Origin: Synechococcales cyanobacterium
GTDB taxonomy: Bacteria; Cyanobacteriota; Cyanobacteriia; Leptolyngbyales; Leptolyngbyaceae
Reading direction: 5' to 3'
Assembly (NCBI GenBank): GCA_043764895.1
Contig: JAYUJY010000174.1
Span: 412-64,411, forward strand
DNA length: 64,000 bases
Every line of letters begins with the position of its first letter. Within the stretch, counting starts at the first letter, position 1. Position numbers and translations under genes: made by a program. Of the stretch, positions 41,899 to 48,030 are shown one piece after another. A model generated the notes under the pieces. It worked only from the letters and a program-made list of their open reading frames with translations. It ran no database searches and was not told the origin of the DNA.

Positions 41899-42261
41899 CT
41901 ATGCAGTCTGTTGCAAGGTTTGTTTTAGTTGTTTCATCCAAGCTTTGGTTCCGTAGATTCCTTGAAGGATGGAGGGGACGCGAAGATGAATATCTAGAGT
42001 TTCCCAATGAAGGGCGTTGCCGGAGGGTGTAAGTTCGATCGCAGCAATGTCTTTGGGGTCGGCGTCGGCGAGTCCTTGAAGGAGGTGATGAGGGACGGTG
42101 AAGGTGGAGCCGTCTTTAAGTTCGATGACGATGGTATGAGTGGTGCGATCGTAGTAGGCATTTTGCGCGCGTGGTTCGGTTGCGTCGGCCAGCATGGCTC
42201 TCGCTTGGGCGCGATCGAGTTGTTCTTTGAGATTTTCTTCGGTCAGGTTAGGTTTTTCCAT
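41899..42261 (-). CDS. DUF2442-family protein
   Basis: The C-terminal half (IVIELKDGSTFTVPHHLL...IELTPSGNALHWETLDIHLRV) matches the DUF2442 pattern. Overlaps its DUF4160 partner by 14 nt. Confidence 0.7.
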   Translation of the reverse strand: MEKPNLTEENLKEQLDRAQARAMLADATEPRAQNAYYDRTTHTIVIELKDGSTFTVPHHLLQGLADADPKDIAAIELTPSGNALHWETLDIHLRVPSILQGIYGTKAWMKQLKQTLQQTA

Positions 42262-42493
42262 GGATATTTTCCCAGGCTTGGAGAAGTTCGGTTTGGTACT
42301 GAGTCACAAGTTCGAGGGCTTGGACACCTGTACGAGGTTTTCCTCTGAGTTCAATGATGCTCGGAGGGATCGTTTCATTTCCTAAGCTAATTTTAGCTTC
42401 TTCTCCGGCGCGAAAGACATGGACATGGGACGGAAGATGATCGTCGAGATAGATAACAACTCTGAATCCATCTTGTCTCAGGATATTTGGCAT
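42248..42493 (-). CDS. DUF4160-family protein
   Basis: MPNILRQDGFRVVIYLDDHLPSHVHVF is a DUF4160 signature. The start is chosen at the internal ATG at 42493, because the longer ORF abuts the NLR stop. Confidence 0.7.
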   Translation of the reverse strand: MPNILRQDGFRVVIYLDDHLPSHVHVFRAGEEAKISLGNETIPPSIIELRGKPRTGVQALELVTQYQTELLQAWENIHGKT

Positions 42494-42535
42494 TTTGGGA
42501 TGTTGAGTTCGACTGTACGACTTGCTGACTGCCAA

Positions 42536-44935
42536 TCATAAAACATCCTGGCTATGCTGCGAAATCGCTTGAGTCATCGGATGCTCGGACAGGCGATCGG
42601 CTTGTCCATTCGTGTGCGCGGTGATAATTAGATCAACCAATCCATTGAATGTGCTTTCGACGTAGGGATGATCTTGGGGGAGCCGATCGAGGAAGACAGT
42701 TAGAGCTTTTTGGTAAAGGGTTTCGGCTTCCTCGTAACGCTCGAATTGAGTATAGAGTCCAGCGAGATTGTTATACCAAACAGCAACGTCTGGATGATCT
42801 TCTCCGAGATGTTGAATACCGATCGCCAAGGCGCGGAGGTAGAGGGGTTCTGCCGCTTCATAACGTCCCATCGATTCGTATAAAAGCGCCAAATTATTTA
42901 AACTCATTCCTATGTTTGGATGGTCCGGACCTAATTGCTTTTCGCCAATCGCCAAGGCGCGGAGGTAGAGGGGTTCTGCGGCTTCGTAACGTCCCATCGA
43001 TTTGTATAAAAGCGCCAAATTGTTCAAATTCGTTCCCGTAGACGGATGGTCCGGACCCAATTGCTTTTCGCCAATCGCCAAGGCGCGGAGGTAAAGGGGT
43101 CCTGCGGCTTCATAACGTCCCATGGATTCGTATAAAAGCGCCAAATTGTTCAAGCTCGTTCCCGTGGTCAGATGGTCTATTCCTAATTGCTTTTCTCTAA
43201 TCGCCAACGCACGAAGGTTGAGGGATTCTGCCGCTTCGTAACGTCCCATCGGTCGATATAAACCCGCCAAGTTATTCAAAATTGTTCCCGTCTCTAGATG
43301 GTCTGGTCCTGATTGCTTTTCTCTGATCGCCAATGCACGAAGATAAAGAGGCTCCGCTGCTTCGTAACGTCCCATTGATTCGTATAAACTCGCCAAATTA
43401 TTCAAGCTCGACCCTGTGGTCAGATGGTCCGGTCCTAATTGCTTGCTAATGATCGCCAAGGCTCGCAGGAAGAAGGATTCTGCCGCTTCGTAACGGCCCA
43501 TCGATCGATATAAACCCGCCAAATTATTCAAGCTCGTACCCGTGTCCGGATGGTCCGGGCCTAACTGCTTTTCTCTGATCGACAAGGCCAGTTCACTACA
43601 CCGAAGCCCCGGTCCAAATAACCCTTGAGTAGAGTAATAAAGGCTAAGGTTTGCTGCCACAGCGGCGATCGACTCTCCAAAAACCTCCACAGACTGCCGC
43701 TCCGTCAGATCCTCCCAATGGGTCATCCACAGCGCCGCATCCTCCACCTGCCCCACATCCATCGTCTGCTTACACCGCTCCCTTGCCGCCTCTAACATCA
43801 CCGCCACATAGCGCTCCCTTGCCTCACTCCCGTCAGCTCTCTCATCCAGCTTCACCACCAAAAACTCCCGCAGCATCGGATGCAACTGCTCATCCATTCC
43901 CACCAAATGCAAATTCACCAACTCATCCCAAGCCTCCTCAAGCTCTTCCTCATCCCACTCCGCTAGACAACTCCGCACCGCCACCGCAGGAATCCCCGCC
44001 AACCCAAACAAACTCAAAAACGCCCCCAAATATTGCGCCTTAGAACCCTCCTCCAGCGCCAGCCAGCTCACCTCAAAAGCAGCCGCCAAACTCACATGCG
44101 TCGTTGTCATCGGCTGTCCCCGCAGCAACGCCTTCGCCACCAGCCCCTGCCCCTTCAACCGCTCCAACACCACCACAAAACTAGTCCTGAGACTCTTCGC
44201 CAAATACCGCCCCACCAGCTCGATCGCCAACGGCAAATTTCCCAACCACTCACACACCTTCGTCGCCGCTTCTCTCTCCCGATCGACCCGCCCCGTCCCC
44301 ACAATCTCACCCAGCAACCCCAACGACTCCGGCAAACTAAACACCCCCAAATCCAACCGCCGCACCTGTAACCGCTCCCTTGTGGTCAACAGCACCCGAA
44401 ACGCCCCATCTGTCGGCAAATAAGGCCGCACCGCCGCATAATCCTGACTCGTCACCACATCATCCACAATCACCAGCCTCCGCCCCTCAATGCCCTGCCG
44501 CCAAAAGGCATAACATTCCTGCACCTTCTGCACATCACTACTCCTCGTCCCCGTCTCCGGCAGCCCCATCCGCACCGCATAGCTCAACACCTGCCCCACA
44601 ATATCCCGCCCACTCAGCCACCACACCCCTCCCGGATAATCCTCGTCATGCCGCACCGCATATTGAACCGCCAGCTCCGTCTTCCCCACGCCGCCCATCC
44701 CCGCTGTCGCCGCCGCGATCGCCACTCTCGACTCTTCCATCAGCAACCCATGTAACGTCGCAAGCTCCTTCTCCCGTCCCACAAAGGTTTCCGTTCCATT
44801 GCGATCGAGAGTCGGACGTTCTACCGATCGTTTTTCCCCATGGTAATGCGTCCCACCTGTAAAGTTTTGATTGTGATCGCCATCATTATGAACATCATAA
44901 AACTCTTGACGATCGGACGTAAAATCTTCATTCAT
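42536..44935 (-). CDS. NLR-like STAND NTPase: N-terminal short signalling motif + NB-ARC + TPR array
   Basis: Walker A GMGGVGKTELA and Walker B LVIVDDV. The C-terminal half carries at least 7 units of 42-aa TPR (NNLAxLYxSMGRYEAAEPLYLRALAI). N-terminal residues 18-33 (HNQNFTGGTHYHG) match the C-terminus of the upstream gene. Confidence 0.9.
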   Translation of the reverse strand: MNEDFTSDRQEFYDVHNDGDHNQNFTGGTHYHGEKRSVERPTLDRNGTETFVGREKELATLHGLLMEESRVAIAAATAGMGGVGKTELAVQYAVRHDEDYPGGVWWLSGRDIVGQVLSYAVRMGLPETGTRSSDVQKVQECYAFWRQGIEGRRLVIVDDVVTSQDYAAVRPYLPTDGAFRVLLTTRERLQVRRLDLGVFSLPESLGLLGEIVGTGRVDREREAATKVCEWLGNLPLAIELVGRYLAKSLRTSFVVVLERLKGQGLVAKALLRGQPMTTTHVSLAAAFEVSWLALEEGSKAQYLGAFLSLFGLAGIPAVAVRSCLAEWDEEELEEAWDELVNLHLVGMDEQLHPMLREFLVVKLDERADGSEARERYVAVMLEAARERCKQTMDVGQVEDAALWMTHWEDLTERQSVEVFGESIAAVAANLSLYYSTQGLFGPGLRCSELALSIREKQLGPDHPDTGTSLNNLAGLYRSMGRYEAAESFFLRALAIISKQLGPDHLTTGSSLNNLASLYESMGRYEAAEPLYLRALAIREKQSGPDHLETGTILNNLAGLYRPMGRYEAAESLNLRALAIREKQLGIDHLTTGTSLNNLALLYESMGRYEAAGPLYLRALAIGEKQLGPDHPSTGTNLNNLALLYKSMGRYEAAEPLYLRALAIGEKQLGPDHPNIGMSLNNLALLYESMGRYEAAEPLYLRALAIGIQHLGEDHPDVAVWYNNLAGLYTQFERYEEAETLYQKALTVFLDRLPQDHPYVESTFNGLVDLIITAHTNGQADRLSEHPMTQAISQHSQDVL
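42553..42606 (+). repeat. Cassette-boundary repeat family R4, partial copy e embedded in the NLR 3' end
   Basis: TATGCTGCGAAATCGCTTGAGTCATCGGATGCTCGGACAGGCGATCGGCTTGTCC. On the minus strand it encodes the NLR tail GQADRLSEHPMTQAISQH. Confidence 0.7.
42683..43564 (-). repeat. Tandem 126-bp coding repeats (TPR units) inside the NLR gene
   Basis: Six near-identical 42-aa units (aa 458-709) plus a more diverged seventh. The repeats are visible at DNA level (..CGCCAAGGCGCGGAGGTAGAGGGGTTCTGC(C/G)GCTTC(A/G)TAACGTCCCAT..). Confidence 0.85.
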
Positions 44936-45001
44936 GACTAAAAACCGGGATTGCTAAGAAGAATAGATTGAGTGCTAATTTAATGTCTAGACTTAGAGCG
45001 A

Positions 45002-45439
45002 TTAGGCAGGGTGATTATGCGTTCCTCCAGTAAAGTTTTTATTGTGAGAACCGATATTTTGAACCGCATAGCCTGTGCCACCCGTCGCGATGTTTTGCAC
45101 GATCGGGCTATTGTTTTCAATCTGCGTCAACTCAAAATGCAGATCATTCGCCAAATCCTTAACAGCCTTCTCAAAATCCGGCGACTGTTTCCAAAGACTC
45201 TCCAGAAAATTCTTCAGCGCCTGCACTTCTTCCGGTTTCTGCTCAGAAGCCCCAACCAGCGCTTCGACCGCTCGCTTATTCGGATGAATCTTCTCAAATA
45301 CAGCATTCCCTAACGCCGTCAGCTTCGTCGCCGCCTTCATCGTCAGCGTCTTCCCCAGTTCTCCCGCCCCGCCCTCAATAAATTTATCCAACGCAATCTT
45401 ACCGATCGCCATCGCCGCCGCCGTCGTCAAAACTTCCAT
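45002..45439 (-). CDS. Small helical Bell-like effector candidate with C-terminal signalling motif
   Basis: 146 aa from the ATG at 45439, with GGAG 7 nt upstream. Hydrophobic/amphipathic N-terminal helix (MEVLTTAAAMAIGKIALDKFIEGGAGELGK). The C-terminus VQNIATGGTGYAVQNIGSHNKNFTGGTHNHPA shares NFTGGTH.H with the NLR N-terminus. Confidence 0.7.
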   Translation of the reverse strand: MEVLTTAAAMAIGKIALDKFIEGGAGELGKTLTMKAATKLTALGNAVFEKIHPNKRAVEALVGASEQKPEEVQALKNFLESLWKQSPDFEKAVKDLANDLHFELTQIENNSPIVQNIATGGTGYAVQNIGSHNKNFTGGTHNHPA

Positions 45440-45631
45440 CACAAGTCTCCCAATCCTAAATTTAAGGTAGATATTTACTTCTTCGAGGACTAGACGAAGT
45501 ATTCCGCACAATTCTCCCGCTCTACCAAAAATTCATCAAAACCTTCACACGACTCATCTTCGATCGTCATTTCCGGAATTCGATCGACAACCATTGAAGT
45601 TCCACCTGTCACTGATCTGTGGAGCATTCCT

Positions 45632-46714
45632 ATGGGACTTTTTGATAAGATTCGGGGCGAATTTGTTGACATTATCGAGTGGTTGGACAACTCCAATGAC
45701 ACGATCGCCTATCGGTTTGAACGGTTCCAGAACGAGATTAAGATGGGCGCAAAGCTCACCGTCAGGCCAGGACAACGCGCCGTTTTTGTCAACGAAGGGC
45801 AAATTGCAGACATCTTTGATCCAGGACTATTTCAACTCTCCACCCAGAACCTGCCCCTTCTGAGCACCCTCCAAGGCTGGAAATACGGCTTCAATTCCCC
45901 TTTCAAAGCAGAAGTCTACTTCTTTAATACTCGCATCTTCACCAACCTCAAATGGGGCACCGCCAACCCAATCATGGTCCGCGATCCAGAACTTGGACCC
46001 GTACGATTGCGCGCCTTTGGGTCCTATAGCATTCGAGTTGTTGATCCCAGAGCATTGTTAGAAGAACTTATCAGCACCGATGGACTCTTTCAAGTCGATG
46101 AAATCAGCGATCAAATTCGCAACATGATCATGACATCCTTTGCGAATAACTTAGGCTCCAATCGCATTCCACTTCTCGATCTCGCCTCCAACTACGGTAG
46201 CCTTGGCAATACCATTCGCACCACGATGCAGCCTGACGTTCAGCGCTTTGGTCTCGACCTAGCGCAGCTTCTCATTGAAAACATTTCCCTCCCACTCGAC
46301 GTCGAAACCGCCCTCGACAAACGGGCCTCCATGGGAATCCTCGGAAACATGCAGCAATACGCGCAGTTCCAAGCCGCCAACGCGATCGAAGCCTCCGCCA
46401 AAACCCCTAACGGCAGTCCCGGACTCGACTTCGGCGTCGGCATCGCCATGGGCCAACAAATGATGAACACCTTCGCCCAACCCCAGCAAGCCACCGTCCA
46501 AACCGTCCCGCCGCCCCCTGTGCAAACCGCCGTTTGGTACCTCTCTCGCAACGGTCAGAACTTCGGTCCCTTCGAGCCTGCGCAGATGATTCAGCAAGGC
46601 ATGACCGCAGAAACCTTCGTCTGGCGATCGGGCCTACCCGGCTGGCTTCGATCGCGCGAAGTGCCTGAAATGGCCCTGATCTTAGGAACGGTTCCGCCGC
46701 CGCCACCCTCGTAG
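45632..46714 (+). CDS. SPFH/band-7-like (COG4260, virion-core-like) protein with C-terminal GYF_2 domain
   Basis: The N-terminus MGLFDKIRGEFVDIIEW...VRPGQRAVFVNEGQ is typical of this SPFH class. The C-terminal WYLSRNGQNFGPFEPAQMIQQG...FVWRSGLPGW fits the GYF_2 pattern. A Pro-rich linker separates them. Confidence 0.75.
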   Translation: MGLFDKIRGEFVDIIEWLDNSNDTIAYRFERFQNEIKMGAKLTVRPGQRAVFVNEGQIADIFDPGLFQLSTQNLPLLSTLQGWKYGFNSPFKAEVYFFNTRIFTNLKWGTANPIMVRDPELGPVRLRAFGSYSIRVVDPRALLEELISTDGLFQVDEISDQIRNMIMTSFANNLGSNRIPLLDLASNYGSLGNTIRTTMQPDVQRFGLDLAQLLIENISLPLDVETALDKRASMGILGNMQQYAQFQAANAIEASAKTPNGSPGLDFGVGIAMGQQMMNTFAQPQQATVQTVPPPPVQTAVWYLSRNGQNFGPFEPAQMIQQGMTAETFVWRSGLPGWLRSREVPEMALILGTVPPPPPS

Positions 46715-46755: not shown

Positions 46756-48030
46756 GTGGCGATGATTAACAGCCCAAAAAATGAAGCCCGATCGTTTCAA
46801 GACTTTCCCTGTCCTCAGTGCGGCGGGAAACTCGAATTCTCGCCGAAAGCGGGGCAACTGCAATGTATCTACTGCGGCTATAAAGAGACTCGTCCAGCCG
46901 CCACGGAATCCACCGCCGTTCGAGAAATTCCCTACACTGAATTTCTCGATAGCCAAGCCGTCAAAACCGCACCGCTTTCCGAAACCGCCCTAGAAGTTGC
47001 CTGCCCAAGCTGCCGCGCTCGCATCACCTTCCAGCCCCCTGACGTCGCCGGGAAATGTCCCTTCTGCGCAACGGCGATCGTCACTCAAGGCGAAAAAGCC
47101 CATCCCGTGGTCGAACCGGGCGGCGTATTGCCCTGCAAAATCACCCAGAAAAAAGCCCGCAAAAACGTCCAAAAATGGCTCGGCAACAACTGGTTCTTGC
47201 CGACCGCCCTCAAGTCCCTCGCCCAACAAGAAGCTATGCAGGGCGTCTACATTCCCTACTGGACCTACGACGCCAAAACCGAAAGCCAGTACACCGGAAG
47301 TCGCGGCGAATACTACACCACTACCGAAATTTACACCACCACTGATGACGATGGGAACCCGTCCATCCAAACCCGTGAAGTCCAACACACACGCTGGTAT
47401 CCGGCCTCGGGTCACGTCTCCCGGCACTTCGACGATCTCCTAATTCCTGCGACAACTCAGCTTAATGAAAAATATCTCGATCGCCTATCCGACTGGAAAT
47501 TAGACCAAATCGTTCCCTACTCGTCATCCTACTTAGCAGGCTTCAAAGCACAACGTTATCAAGTCACCCTCGAAGCCGGATTGACCCTAGCAAAGTCCAA
47601 AATGGCCTCCCAAATCCACACCGACGCCTGCCATGACATCGGCGGAGATACCCAAAGTGTTGATCACATCCAAACTCAACATCACGACATTACTTTCAAA
47701 CATATTCTGCTGCCCCTGTGGCTTTCCGCCTATCGGTACAAAAATAAGCAATACCAAGTCATGGTCAACGCCCAAACGGGAGACGTGTCCGGTGAACGGC
47801 CTTACAGCAATACTAAAATTGCGATCGCCGTTATGCTTGGAATCACGATCGTTCTAGCCTTCTGCTATGCCGTATCCCGTGGGCAAAACAACAGCGCTCC
47901 ATCGAATAGCCGAACTCGAATTCGCATTGAGAACAGTGCCCCTAGACGAGATCCGCCCACGCTTTCAAATCCCGCCGTCTCCAAACCCGCCGCCACTAAA
48001 CCTCAGCCTCAAAGCAAAAAGCGACCGTAA
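46756..48030 (+). CDS. Double zinc-ribbon protein with C-terminal TM anchor
   Basis: CPQCGG..x..CIYCG and CPSCRA..x..CPFC zinc ribbons. One TM helix near aa 355-375 (IAIAVMLGITIVLAFCYAV). Lies 41 nt downstream of the SPFH gene. Confidence 0.6.
   Translation: MAMINSPKNEARSFQDFPCPQCGGKLEFSPKAGQLQCIYCGYKETRPAATESTAVREIPYTEFLDSQAVKTAPLSETALEVACPSCRARITFQPPDVAGKCPFCATAIVTQGEKAHPVVEPGGVLPCKITQKKARKNVQKWLGNNWFLPTALKSLAQQEAMQGVYIPYWTYDAKTESQYTGSRGEYYTTTEIYTTTDDDGNPSIQTREVQHTRWYPASGHVSRHFDDLLIPATTQLNEKYLDRLSDWKLDQIVPYSSSYLAGFKAQRYQVTLEAGLTLAKSKMASQIHTDACHDIGGDTQSVDHIQTQHHDITFKHILLPLWLSAYRYKNKQYQVMVNAQTGDVSGERPYSNTKIAIAVMLGITIVLAFCYAVSRGQNNSAPSNSRTRIRIENSAPRRDPPTLSNPAVSKPAATKPQPQSKKRP

Follow-up and report, generated by a model that had tools for sequence, protein, structure and literature searches.

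A putative Bell/BASS-type effector–receptor gene pair sharing a His-rich terminal motif in a Synechococcales cyanobacterium

Amyloid signalling from an NLR (NOD-like receptor) to a pore-forming effector is well documented for fungi and, as of 2024, also for a single anti-phage system of Escherichia coli, while in cyanobacteria it is described by bioinformatics alone. In the HET-S/NWD2 pair of Podospora anserina, which involves a HeLo effector with the HRAM prion-forming domain, the two genes are adjacent and the N-terminal motif of the NLR matches the C-terminal motif of the effector. The Bab/Agp pair of E. coli ECOR25, whose bacterial amyloid signalling sequence (BASS) belongs to family BASS11, comprises a small helical, Bell-related effector whose C-terminal amyloid motif has its counterpart in the N-terminus of the sensor encoded next to it, and phage-triggered cell death and abortive infection were demonstrated experimentally for this pair (Ibarlosa et al., 2024 preprint). 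In cyanobacteria, Bell/BASS9/NB-ARC-TPR pairs were catalogued by Dyrka et al. (2020), e.g., CAO90856/CAO90857 in Microcystis aeruginosa PCC 7806 and BAU44503/BAU44504 in Leptolyngbya sp. O-77. Here, we analyzed a stretch of 64,000 nucleotides (hereafter “the window”) from a Synechococcales cyanobacterium (GenBank assembly GCA_043764895.1, contig JAYUJY010000174.1, positions 412 to 64,411), in which a gene for a small protein precedes a gene for an NLR. The two genes probably form a Bell/BASS-type cell-fate cassette of NLR and effector. Its design is a known one; what is new, as judged from the sequences, is a candidate motif subtype lying outside the ten published families and joined to BASS9 by intermediates.

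The initial annotation had placed two consecutive genes 66 nt apart on the minus strand, and the coordinates of the open reading frames (ORFs) agree with this layout (Table 1). The small upstream gene and its placement were borne out as well, except that its product has 145 aa, the 146 aa reported earlier including the stop codon. Both genes are collinear and lie in the same frame, with five in-frame stops in the spacer between them. The effector ends with ...VQNIATGGTGYAVQNIGSHNKNFTGGTHNHPA and the NLR begins with MNEDFTSDRQEFYDVHNDGDHNQNFTGGTHYHG. No terminator was detected on the coding strand of the spacer and its promoter-like sites are only weak, which is compatible with an operon without proving one. 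As previously annotated, the NLR contains an NB-ARC NTPase domain with both Walker motifs, A (GMGGVGKT) and B (LVIVDDV), and behind this domain a repeat sensor, the Pfam family TPR_12 matching in 7 stretches (E 9e-120) and TPR_10 in 8. It is the only ORF of the window carrying a G.GG.GK[TS] P-loop, and Pfam assigned it no effector domain of its own. Like the anti-phage NLRs Avs and bNACHT, it is a STAND NTPase with a repeat sensor, of which oligomerization is expected; unlike in these systems, where the effector domain is part of the same polypeptide, the effector of the window is a separate protein linked to the receptor only via the shared motif. The receptor also differs from NWD2, which is of NACHT/WD40 type and is not bacterial, and from the Agp sensor, which is of TPR-GreA/B-C-PIN type and not a STAND NTPase.

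Table 1. Features of the effector/NLR locus in the window, and in-frame-stop regions of related loci.
Feature	Coordinates	Strand	Basis and remarks
Conserved upstream region, about 110 nt	45440..45551	(-)	Travels with the cassette; GGGAGA before ATG
Putative effector gene (Bell-type)	45002..45439	(-)	ORF, 145 aa and stop codon
Helical N-terminal (Bell-like) domain	45104..45439	(-)	Effector residues 1-112; AlphaFold2 model, family conservation
Hydrophobic N-terminal helix VLTTAAAMAIGKIAL	45389..45433	(-)	Effector residues 3-17, preceded by E2
Variable C-terminal tail with putative signalling motif	45005..45103	(-)	Effector residues 113-145; family alignment
Effector-side motif copy YAVQNIGSHNKNFTGGTHNH	45011..45070	(-)	Effector residues 124-143
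Spacer between effector and NLR genes	44936..45001	(-)	66 nt, five in-frame stops
NLR-type STAND receptor gene	42536..44935	(-)	ORF, 799 aa; Pfam NB-ARC and TPR_12/TPR_10
NLR-side motif copy YDVHNDGDHNQNFTGGTHYH	44840..44899	(-)	NLR residues 13-32
NB-ARC nucleotide-binding domain	44138..44773	(-)	NLR residues 55-266; PF00931, E 6e-13
Walker A GMGGVGKT	44678-44701	(-)	Direct sequence reading
TPR array (putative sensor)	42638..43744	(-)	NLR residues about 398-766; TPR_12 and TPR_10
In-frame-stop regions	L011:6451-6540; L015:6460-6570; L020:6463-6606		Related loci, not the window

The motif that had been noticed at the C-terminus of the small protein and at the N-terminus of the NLR turned out to be part of a longer block of 20 gapless residues with 14 identities (Y.V.N.G.HN.NFTGGTH.H). 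The Smith-Waterman score of this block was 81, as compared with a maximum of 47 over 20,000 shuffles of the NLR N-terminus, and the pattern N[FIYL][TFIL]GG.H had just two occurrences when the window was translated in all six frames. In BASS pairs, adjacent collinear genes likewise have a motif of about 20-25 residues in common, located at the C-terminus of the effector and at the N-terminus of the NLR. The two DNA segments are identical at 44 of 60 positions and use different codons at 5 of the 14 identical residues. Therefore, the peptide is conserved by selection, and a recent DNA duplication as the origin of the motif was ruled out by these synonymous differences. Published BASS motifs are rich in G/N/Q and V/I and poor in K/P/L; with 16% T, 15% G, 15% N, 13% H, 2% Q, at most 3% each of K and P, and no L, the window motif fits this composition in part. 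The pseudo-repeat which had been described upstream in the small protein is present (VQNIA..TGGTG / VQNIG......TGGTH), though weak and only partly kept in relatives.

Further loci were gathered from genomes, metagenomes and exact-protein look-ups. In the orthologous pairs L028, L029, and L030, whose effectors are 70-79% identical, both motif copies were kept and the spacer measured 64-66 nt. The effector tails of these pairs end with ..GYAVQNIGSHNKNFTGGTHNHPS and their NLRs begin with ..EFYCIHNDGDHHKNFAGGTHYHG or ..EFYNVHNDGDHNKKFTGGTHYHG, the NLR-side motif being EFYCIHNDGDHHKNFAGGTHYH in L028 and EFYNVHNDGDHNKKFTGGTHYH in L030. In more distant pairs the tail class changes and the NLR N-terminus changes in step. 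This is illustrated by L001 (tail NKNTNIIGGTHTHTHNQ, NLR EKNTNIIGGDHVHYHNE), L007 (tail STGYQTKTGTNNTNFFGGTHNH, NLR GTGYQTNTGANNTNFFGGEHHH), and L005 (tail NAKGWQTKVTGGQPYIGEIHIH, NLR DARGYQVLVEGGRAYIGEHLH). An NB-ARC+TPR gene with a matching motif was located directly downstream in 13 of the 13 pairs examined. Over these pairs the cognate scores summed to 941, whereas permuting the partners gave 623 ± 56 and did not reach 941 in any of 100,000 permutations, a figure which is not a strict probability because the 13 pairs are phylogenetically related. The recurrence of the motif on both partners, which the initial annotation had proposed as a check, was thus observed together with co-variation. 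The wider neighbourhoods vary by locus and include ABC transporters, PGI, LytB/NdhS, a tRNA synthetase, and toxin-antitoxin modules. Hence, the two genes move as a cassette.

The small protein has 75 homologues of about 145 aa; those with a named source are all cyanobacterial (Oscillatoria, Geitlerinemataceae, Symploca, Adonisia), and the remaining ones are genome or metagenome entries. In their alignment, the N-terminal domain (about 112 residues; ELGK, HFELTQIEDNSS) is conserved, whereas the tail of about 33 residues varies and falls into classes. An AlphaFold2 (AF2) model built from the family alignment is helical (residues 6-20, 24-27, 34-51, 55-65, 69-85, and 87-106), with predicted local distance difference test (pLDDT) block values of 65-89 across residues 1-100. 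The hydrophobic N-terminal helix that had been annotated is illustrated by a Kyte-Doolittle mean of 1.73 over residues 3-17, the maximum of the protein. Moreover, the window protein begins with ME-VLTTAAAMAIGKIAL, and of 20 family members 18 have D or E as their second or third residue; such a hydrophobic N-terminal helix with an acidic residue is a signature of Bell, HeLo, MLKL, and plant CC N-termini (Dyrka et al., 2020). With its 145 aa, its N-terminal helical bundle and its C-terminal motif, the protein resembles the short Bell proteins of about 120-140 aa. No family was matched by the small protein in Pfam, NCBIfam, PADLOC, and PHROGs, nor by any of 32 aligned homologues in Pfam, including HeLo, HeLo-like, SesA, MLKL, and RPW8, and a profile search of PDB sequences gave nothing below E 0.08. 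As in HET-S, the effector is helical, has a putative membrane-targeting N-terminal helix and shows a hint of a pseudo-repeat in its tail; unlike in HET-S, this pseudo-repeat is weak and there is no detectable similarity to HeLo by sequence or by Foldseek. The likeness to Bab is one of description, not of sequence comparison, Bab having 109 aa and a motif of another family.

The Bell profile of Dyrka et al. (2020) was seeded on Saccharothrix ONI86675.1, and Pfam, NCBIfam, and PADLOC hold no Bell hidden Markov model (HMM). As a surrogate, a profile of residues 1-112 without the tail (A2) was searched against 1.84 billion cluster representatives, and the tails of the best 150 matches were compared with the Bell-side motifs in Table S2 of Dyrka et al. 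(2020). In the window, the effector ORF was the sole match (E 2e-53). The search yielded 261 representatives at E <= 1e-3, 72 of them at E <= 1e-10. Among the best 150 of the 261, matches at E 1e-8 to 1e-19 carried published tails: BASS9 in P0086 (..NARGWQTKVEGGTAYIGEI) and P0140 (..SAKGWQTKVEGGTAYIGEI), the published Bell-side form being M[TI]QNN.DNA[KR]GWQTKVEGGTAYI at residues about 110-132 (Dyrka et al., 2020); BASS8 in P0113, P0124, and P0197 (..NYGRDQI.I, published as NYGRDQINI); and the RHIM-like BASS3 in P0120 (VNQSGTGNTQNNTF, published as NQSGTGNTQNNTF). A Cyanothece PCC 7822 motif outside the named families (EVWNVIGKAEKN.F.DNKAPIIKD) was seen in P0116 and P0128 of the same 150. Since the N-domain profile reaches published Bell-side tails, the window N-domain would belong to the cyanobacterial part of the Bell set. 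Membership of the small protein in the Bell set of Dyrka et al. is thus supported, through identity of tail motifs and not through accession numbers: when cluster members and a second homologue search were compared with the accessions in Table S2, nearly all matches proved to be metagenome proteins.

The same N-domain also heads single-polypeptide fusions, as Bell domains do in all-in-one NLR architectures: it precedes NB-ARC+TPR in P0175, with a BASS9-like motif between N-domain and NB-ARC, and CHAT+TRADD-N+TIR in P0127. Further fusion partners are TIR (P0094), CHAT (P0173), and GUN4 (P0108, P0112, P0134). These fusions keep a BASS-like tail, and GUN4 would not be expected as the partner of an immune effector. 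Together with the positive surrogate profile, the helical fold and the N-terminal helix signature agree with the Bell-like effector reading of the initial annotation. The computational checks by which that annotation could have been refuted were each run or approximated, and none spoke against it.

The assignment of the motif to a BASS family was less straightforward. The window pair resembles Bell/BASS9 pairs in the size of its effector, in a homologous N-domain with the tail at about residues 110-145, in the collinear genes with NB-ARC+TPR downstream, and in the match between effector C-terminus and NLR N-terminus. A surrogate HMM derived from 16 published BASS9 sequences did not detect the window motif GYAVQNIGSHNKNFTGGTHNH, which differs from BASS9 in having about 2 additional residues in its middle part, in lacking the GWQTKV core, and in ending in N-x-N-Phi-x-G-G-x-H-x-H. 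With this HMM, 46.8 and 40.0 bits were obtained for the effector tail and the NLR N-terminus of L027, a relative of the BASS9 class, and 12.8 and 5.1 bits for those of L007 (NTNFFGG class). The corresponding values for the window were -5.8 and 0.2 bits, and a BASS9 assignment by profile was accordingly ruled out. Among the 75 close homologues of the window protein, 25 carry N-x-N-Phi-x-G-G-x-H-x-H and 19 a canonical BASS9 followed by IGEIH.H; graded intermediates connect the two, e.g., STGYQTKVEGSGPTFVGGVHHHG in P0167. The initial annotation had left the BASS family open and had suggested a search against BASS profiles; the surrogate BASS9 profile gave no match, and the link to BASS9 is through these intermediates. 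From these alignments, the motif is best described as a putative uncatalogued His-rich derivative inside the BASS9-bearing Bell clade, not as BASS9 as published. The motif strings turned up in no paper when the literature was searched in full text. The position of the NLR-side copy differs as well. The NLR-side motif stands at residues 51-73 in the table of Dyrka et al. (2020), and canonical-BASS9 NLRs (L005:2636-, L027:4431-, L004:6419-, L032, L041) have a conserved helical extension of about 50 aa (MADLLIEQLCQ.L.EKLQ...) before it, which is missing from the window-type NLR.

In analogy with the described systems, the pair would probably work in the way that the initial annotation had put forward. 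The TPR array would sense a phage- or stress-derived ligand, and this sensing would drive NB-ARC oligomerization of the NLR. The short and presumably unstructured N-termini of the NLR would then be clustered, allowing their motifs to adopt a cross-beta fold that could template the tails of free effector molecules. Tail refolding would free the N-terminal helix of the Bell domain for an attack on the membrane by which the cell is killed or arrested, the outcome being abortive infection or programmed cell death. Gene layout, domain content, motif sharing above chance level, conservation of the motif with co-variation of the partners, the helical fold and N-domain homology to cyanobacterial Bell-set proteins are results of the present analysis, whereas amyloid formation, templating, membrane targeting, killing and the trigger are inferred from BASS1 and BASS3, which form prions and fibrils, and from Bab/Agp, which is an abortive-infection system.

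Several points weigh against this reading. The motif scored no better than shuffles on the surrogate BASS9 HMM, and the strings FFGG, GGTH, FTGG, IGGT, and IGEI are absent from the 346 pairs (BASS1-10) in Table S2 of Dyrka et al. (2020). As compared with published BASS motifs, Q is rare and H unusually frequent, and both the window motif and BASS9 are known here as sequences only. Tails of the BASS1 type, i.e., of the founding actinobacterial Bell proteins, were not found among the best 150 of the 261 A2 matches. PADLOC holds no model for the pair and returned only a generic TPR match, and the neighbourhoods show no consistent defence-island signal. The AF2 model gives the tail as short beta strands at low confidence. 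Finally, a Foldseek comparison of this model with PDB and BFVD returned nothing significant (best E 0.43); E values of BAX, NRG1 CC-R, and Rx-CC were as high as 2-8, and these matches were not used as evidence. The fold therefore neither supports nor refutes a HeLo-type link.

Part of these points would also suit a shared motif serving as a stoichiometric homotypic docking tag, e.g., through beta-augmentation, which recruits the effector or holds it inactive without prion templating. Indeed, motif sharing and co-variation tell of a required match between the ends and not of the mode of their interaction, the tail hairpins of the AF2 model are of low confidence, and the motif fails the surrogate BASS9 profile. 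We consider a mere docking tag unlikely, while giving it more credit than the other alternatives, since the length of the motif, its G/N-rich composition, its terminal position and its Bell/NLR context are those of the amyloid prion motifs BASS1, BASS3, and BASS11, and since the tail classes grade into BASS9. Amyloid templating remains the preferred reading of the shared ends.

The role of the small protein could also be questioned. It might be a regulator of the NLR, i.e., an inhibitor or chaperone tethered via the motif, with the output carried elsewhere; the Foldseek result, which gave no significant match to pore-forming domains, and the putative character of toxicity in the Bell clade would allow this. 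Such a role is improbable given that the NLR itself has no effector domain, that the same N-domain occupies the effector position in fusions with NLR, TIR, or CHAT, and that the hydrophobic N-terminal helix with its acidic residue 2/3 is the Bell/HeLo signature. A putative role as executioner is retained for the small protein. Fewer grounds still exist for regarding the His-rich ends (GGTHNH / GGTHYH) as metal-binding or pH-sensing sites whose identity would reflect a common ligand instead of mutual interaction. H makes up 13% of the motif residues and the various tail classes all retain an H-x-H(-x-H) end; against this, the whole 20-residue block is conserved, including Y, V, N, G, and NFTGG and not His alone, the partners co-vary at non-His positions, and the His end is often absent from NLR-side copies of BASS9, so that we hold this explanation to be quite improbable. 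A chance or low-complexity likeness, excluded by shuffles, orthologues, and the permutation test, and membership in another small-protein/NB-ARC-TPR system such as FxSxx-COOH are hardly credible: the best NCBIfam match of the NLR is indeed the FxSxx-COOH system TPR protein (NF040586), but its 292.3 bits fall short of the curated cut-off (300), the C-terminus of the small protein reads HNHPA and not FxSxx, no radical-SAM maturase was found within +/-10 kb, and the near-cut-off score is explained by the shared NB-ARC+TPR architecture.

Relatives with other tail classes present a distinct arrangement, to which the window pair itself does not belong. In these loci, counted as twelve (L011, L012, L013, L015, L017, L020, L037, L043-L048), the Bell-BASS ORF ends with ...P-x-D and a single conserved in-frame stop, after which the reading frame goes on into the NLR. 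As stop codon, either TAG or TGA is used and TAA in no case, and C stands at +4 (CTG or CTA) in all but one of the 12 loci. In E. coli, termination is weak in the contexts UGA-C and UAG-C. The ORFs after the stop encode NB-ARC+TPR or NACHT+NCH2 proteins without a motif copy of their own (motif scores 15-30), and their first 17-46 codons include no ATG, GTG, or TTG. The earliest canonical start of L017 and L020 falls within the P-loop (VISGLGGVGKS), the NB-ARC match beginning ten codons before. A post-stop peptide, L-x-S-S-G-G-x-P-T-K, is kept between distant loci and is found uninterrupted in the continuous fusion P0112 (..PPHELKSSGGVPTKK..). Between L017 and L020, the post-stop stretch shows 8, 8, and 18 differences at codon positions 1, 2, and 3, i.e., mostly at the third. 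These sequence features suggest a conserved leaky stop giving a minor Bell-BASS-NLR read-through fusion, which would explain the single stop, the same frame, the missing starts and the missing NLR motif. Re-initiation at CTG after the stop is unlikely as a general rule, L043 and L044 having CTA at this place. The lack of a motif copy on the NLRs of these relatives fits a receptor that needs the effector's own motif, and a leaky stop supplying it would in turn support the motif as the functional link in the window pair. Besides the conserved pre-NLR stop, the BASS9-type effector of L045 (L045:3001-3375) contains a TGA at the Trp codon of GWQTKV (..NAKG*QTKVEGGTAYIGEIHIHGQTD*LESSGG..), for which an error of sequencing, a pseudogene or an additional site of recoding would be conceivable explanations.

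A broader proposal can be made only tentatively, and we lean toward doubting it in its entirety: as its type example, the window tail would stand for a His-laddered BASS subtype missing from the catalogue (...G-Y-x-[VT]-x-x-x-G-x-x-N-x-N-Phi-x-G-G-x-H-x-H), with a cross-beta fold gated by pH or metal via stacked His residues, and the NLR would have two interchangeable ways of presenting the motif, i.e., a duplicated N-terminal copy as in the window, or a leaky in-frame TAG/TGA-C stop with the read-through fusion as nucleator as in the sister loci. If confirmed, read-through would argue on independent genetic grounds for a receptor that has to carry the effector's motif, and would add to bacterial immunity a programmed event of a rare kind. 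To a specialist the pair as such will be unsurprising, the notable points being the drift of the motif, its His-rich end and the in-frame-stop relatives. As a clean, intact, and conserved pair, the locus offers a test case for motif drift under kept partner specificity and, through its conserved H-x-H end, for pH or metal sensitivity.

The region directly upstream of the effector gene (Table 1) is 73-93% identical in nucleotides among the window, L028, L030, L001, and L024, although identity between their effector proteins is no more than 60-79% and the genomic contexts differ. In the relatives it includes a weak -35/-10-like pair (TTGAAG-16 nt-TAAATT), and the conservation extends beyond about -40. 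Judging from this pattern, the region is likely a promoter or leader, the part beyond about -40 of which may hold a regulator-binding site. Rfam gave no match in 42300-45800. Within +/-10 kb (locus L021), the surroundings are dense in toxin-antitoxin-type genes (two PIN, BrnT, ParD, XisH/XisI) and also contain a 1461-aa SNF2-family helicase and a GAF histidine kinase; this neighbourhood has the appearance of an accessory-genome region and does not correspond to any recognised defence island. A DUF4160/DUF2442 pair directly follows the NLR (window 41899-42535, minus strand), and the divergent upstream genes encode a Band_7/SPFH+GYF_2 protein (45632-46714) and a 424-aa zinc-ribbon protein (46756-48030).

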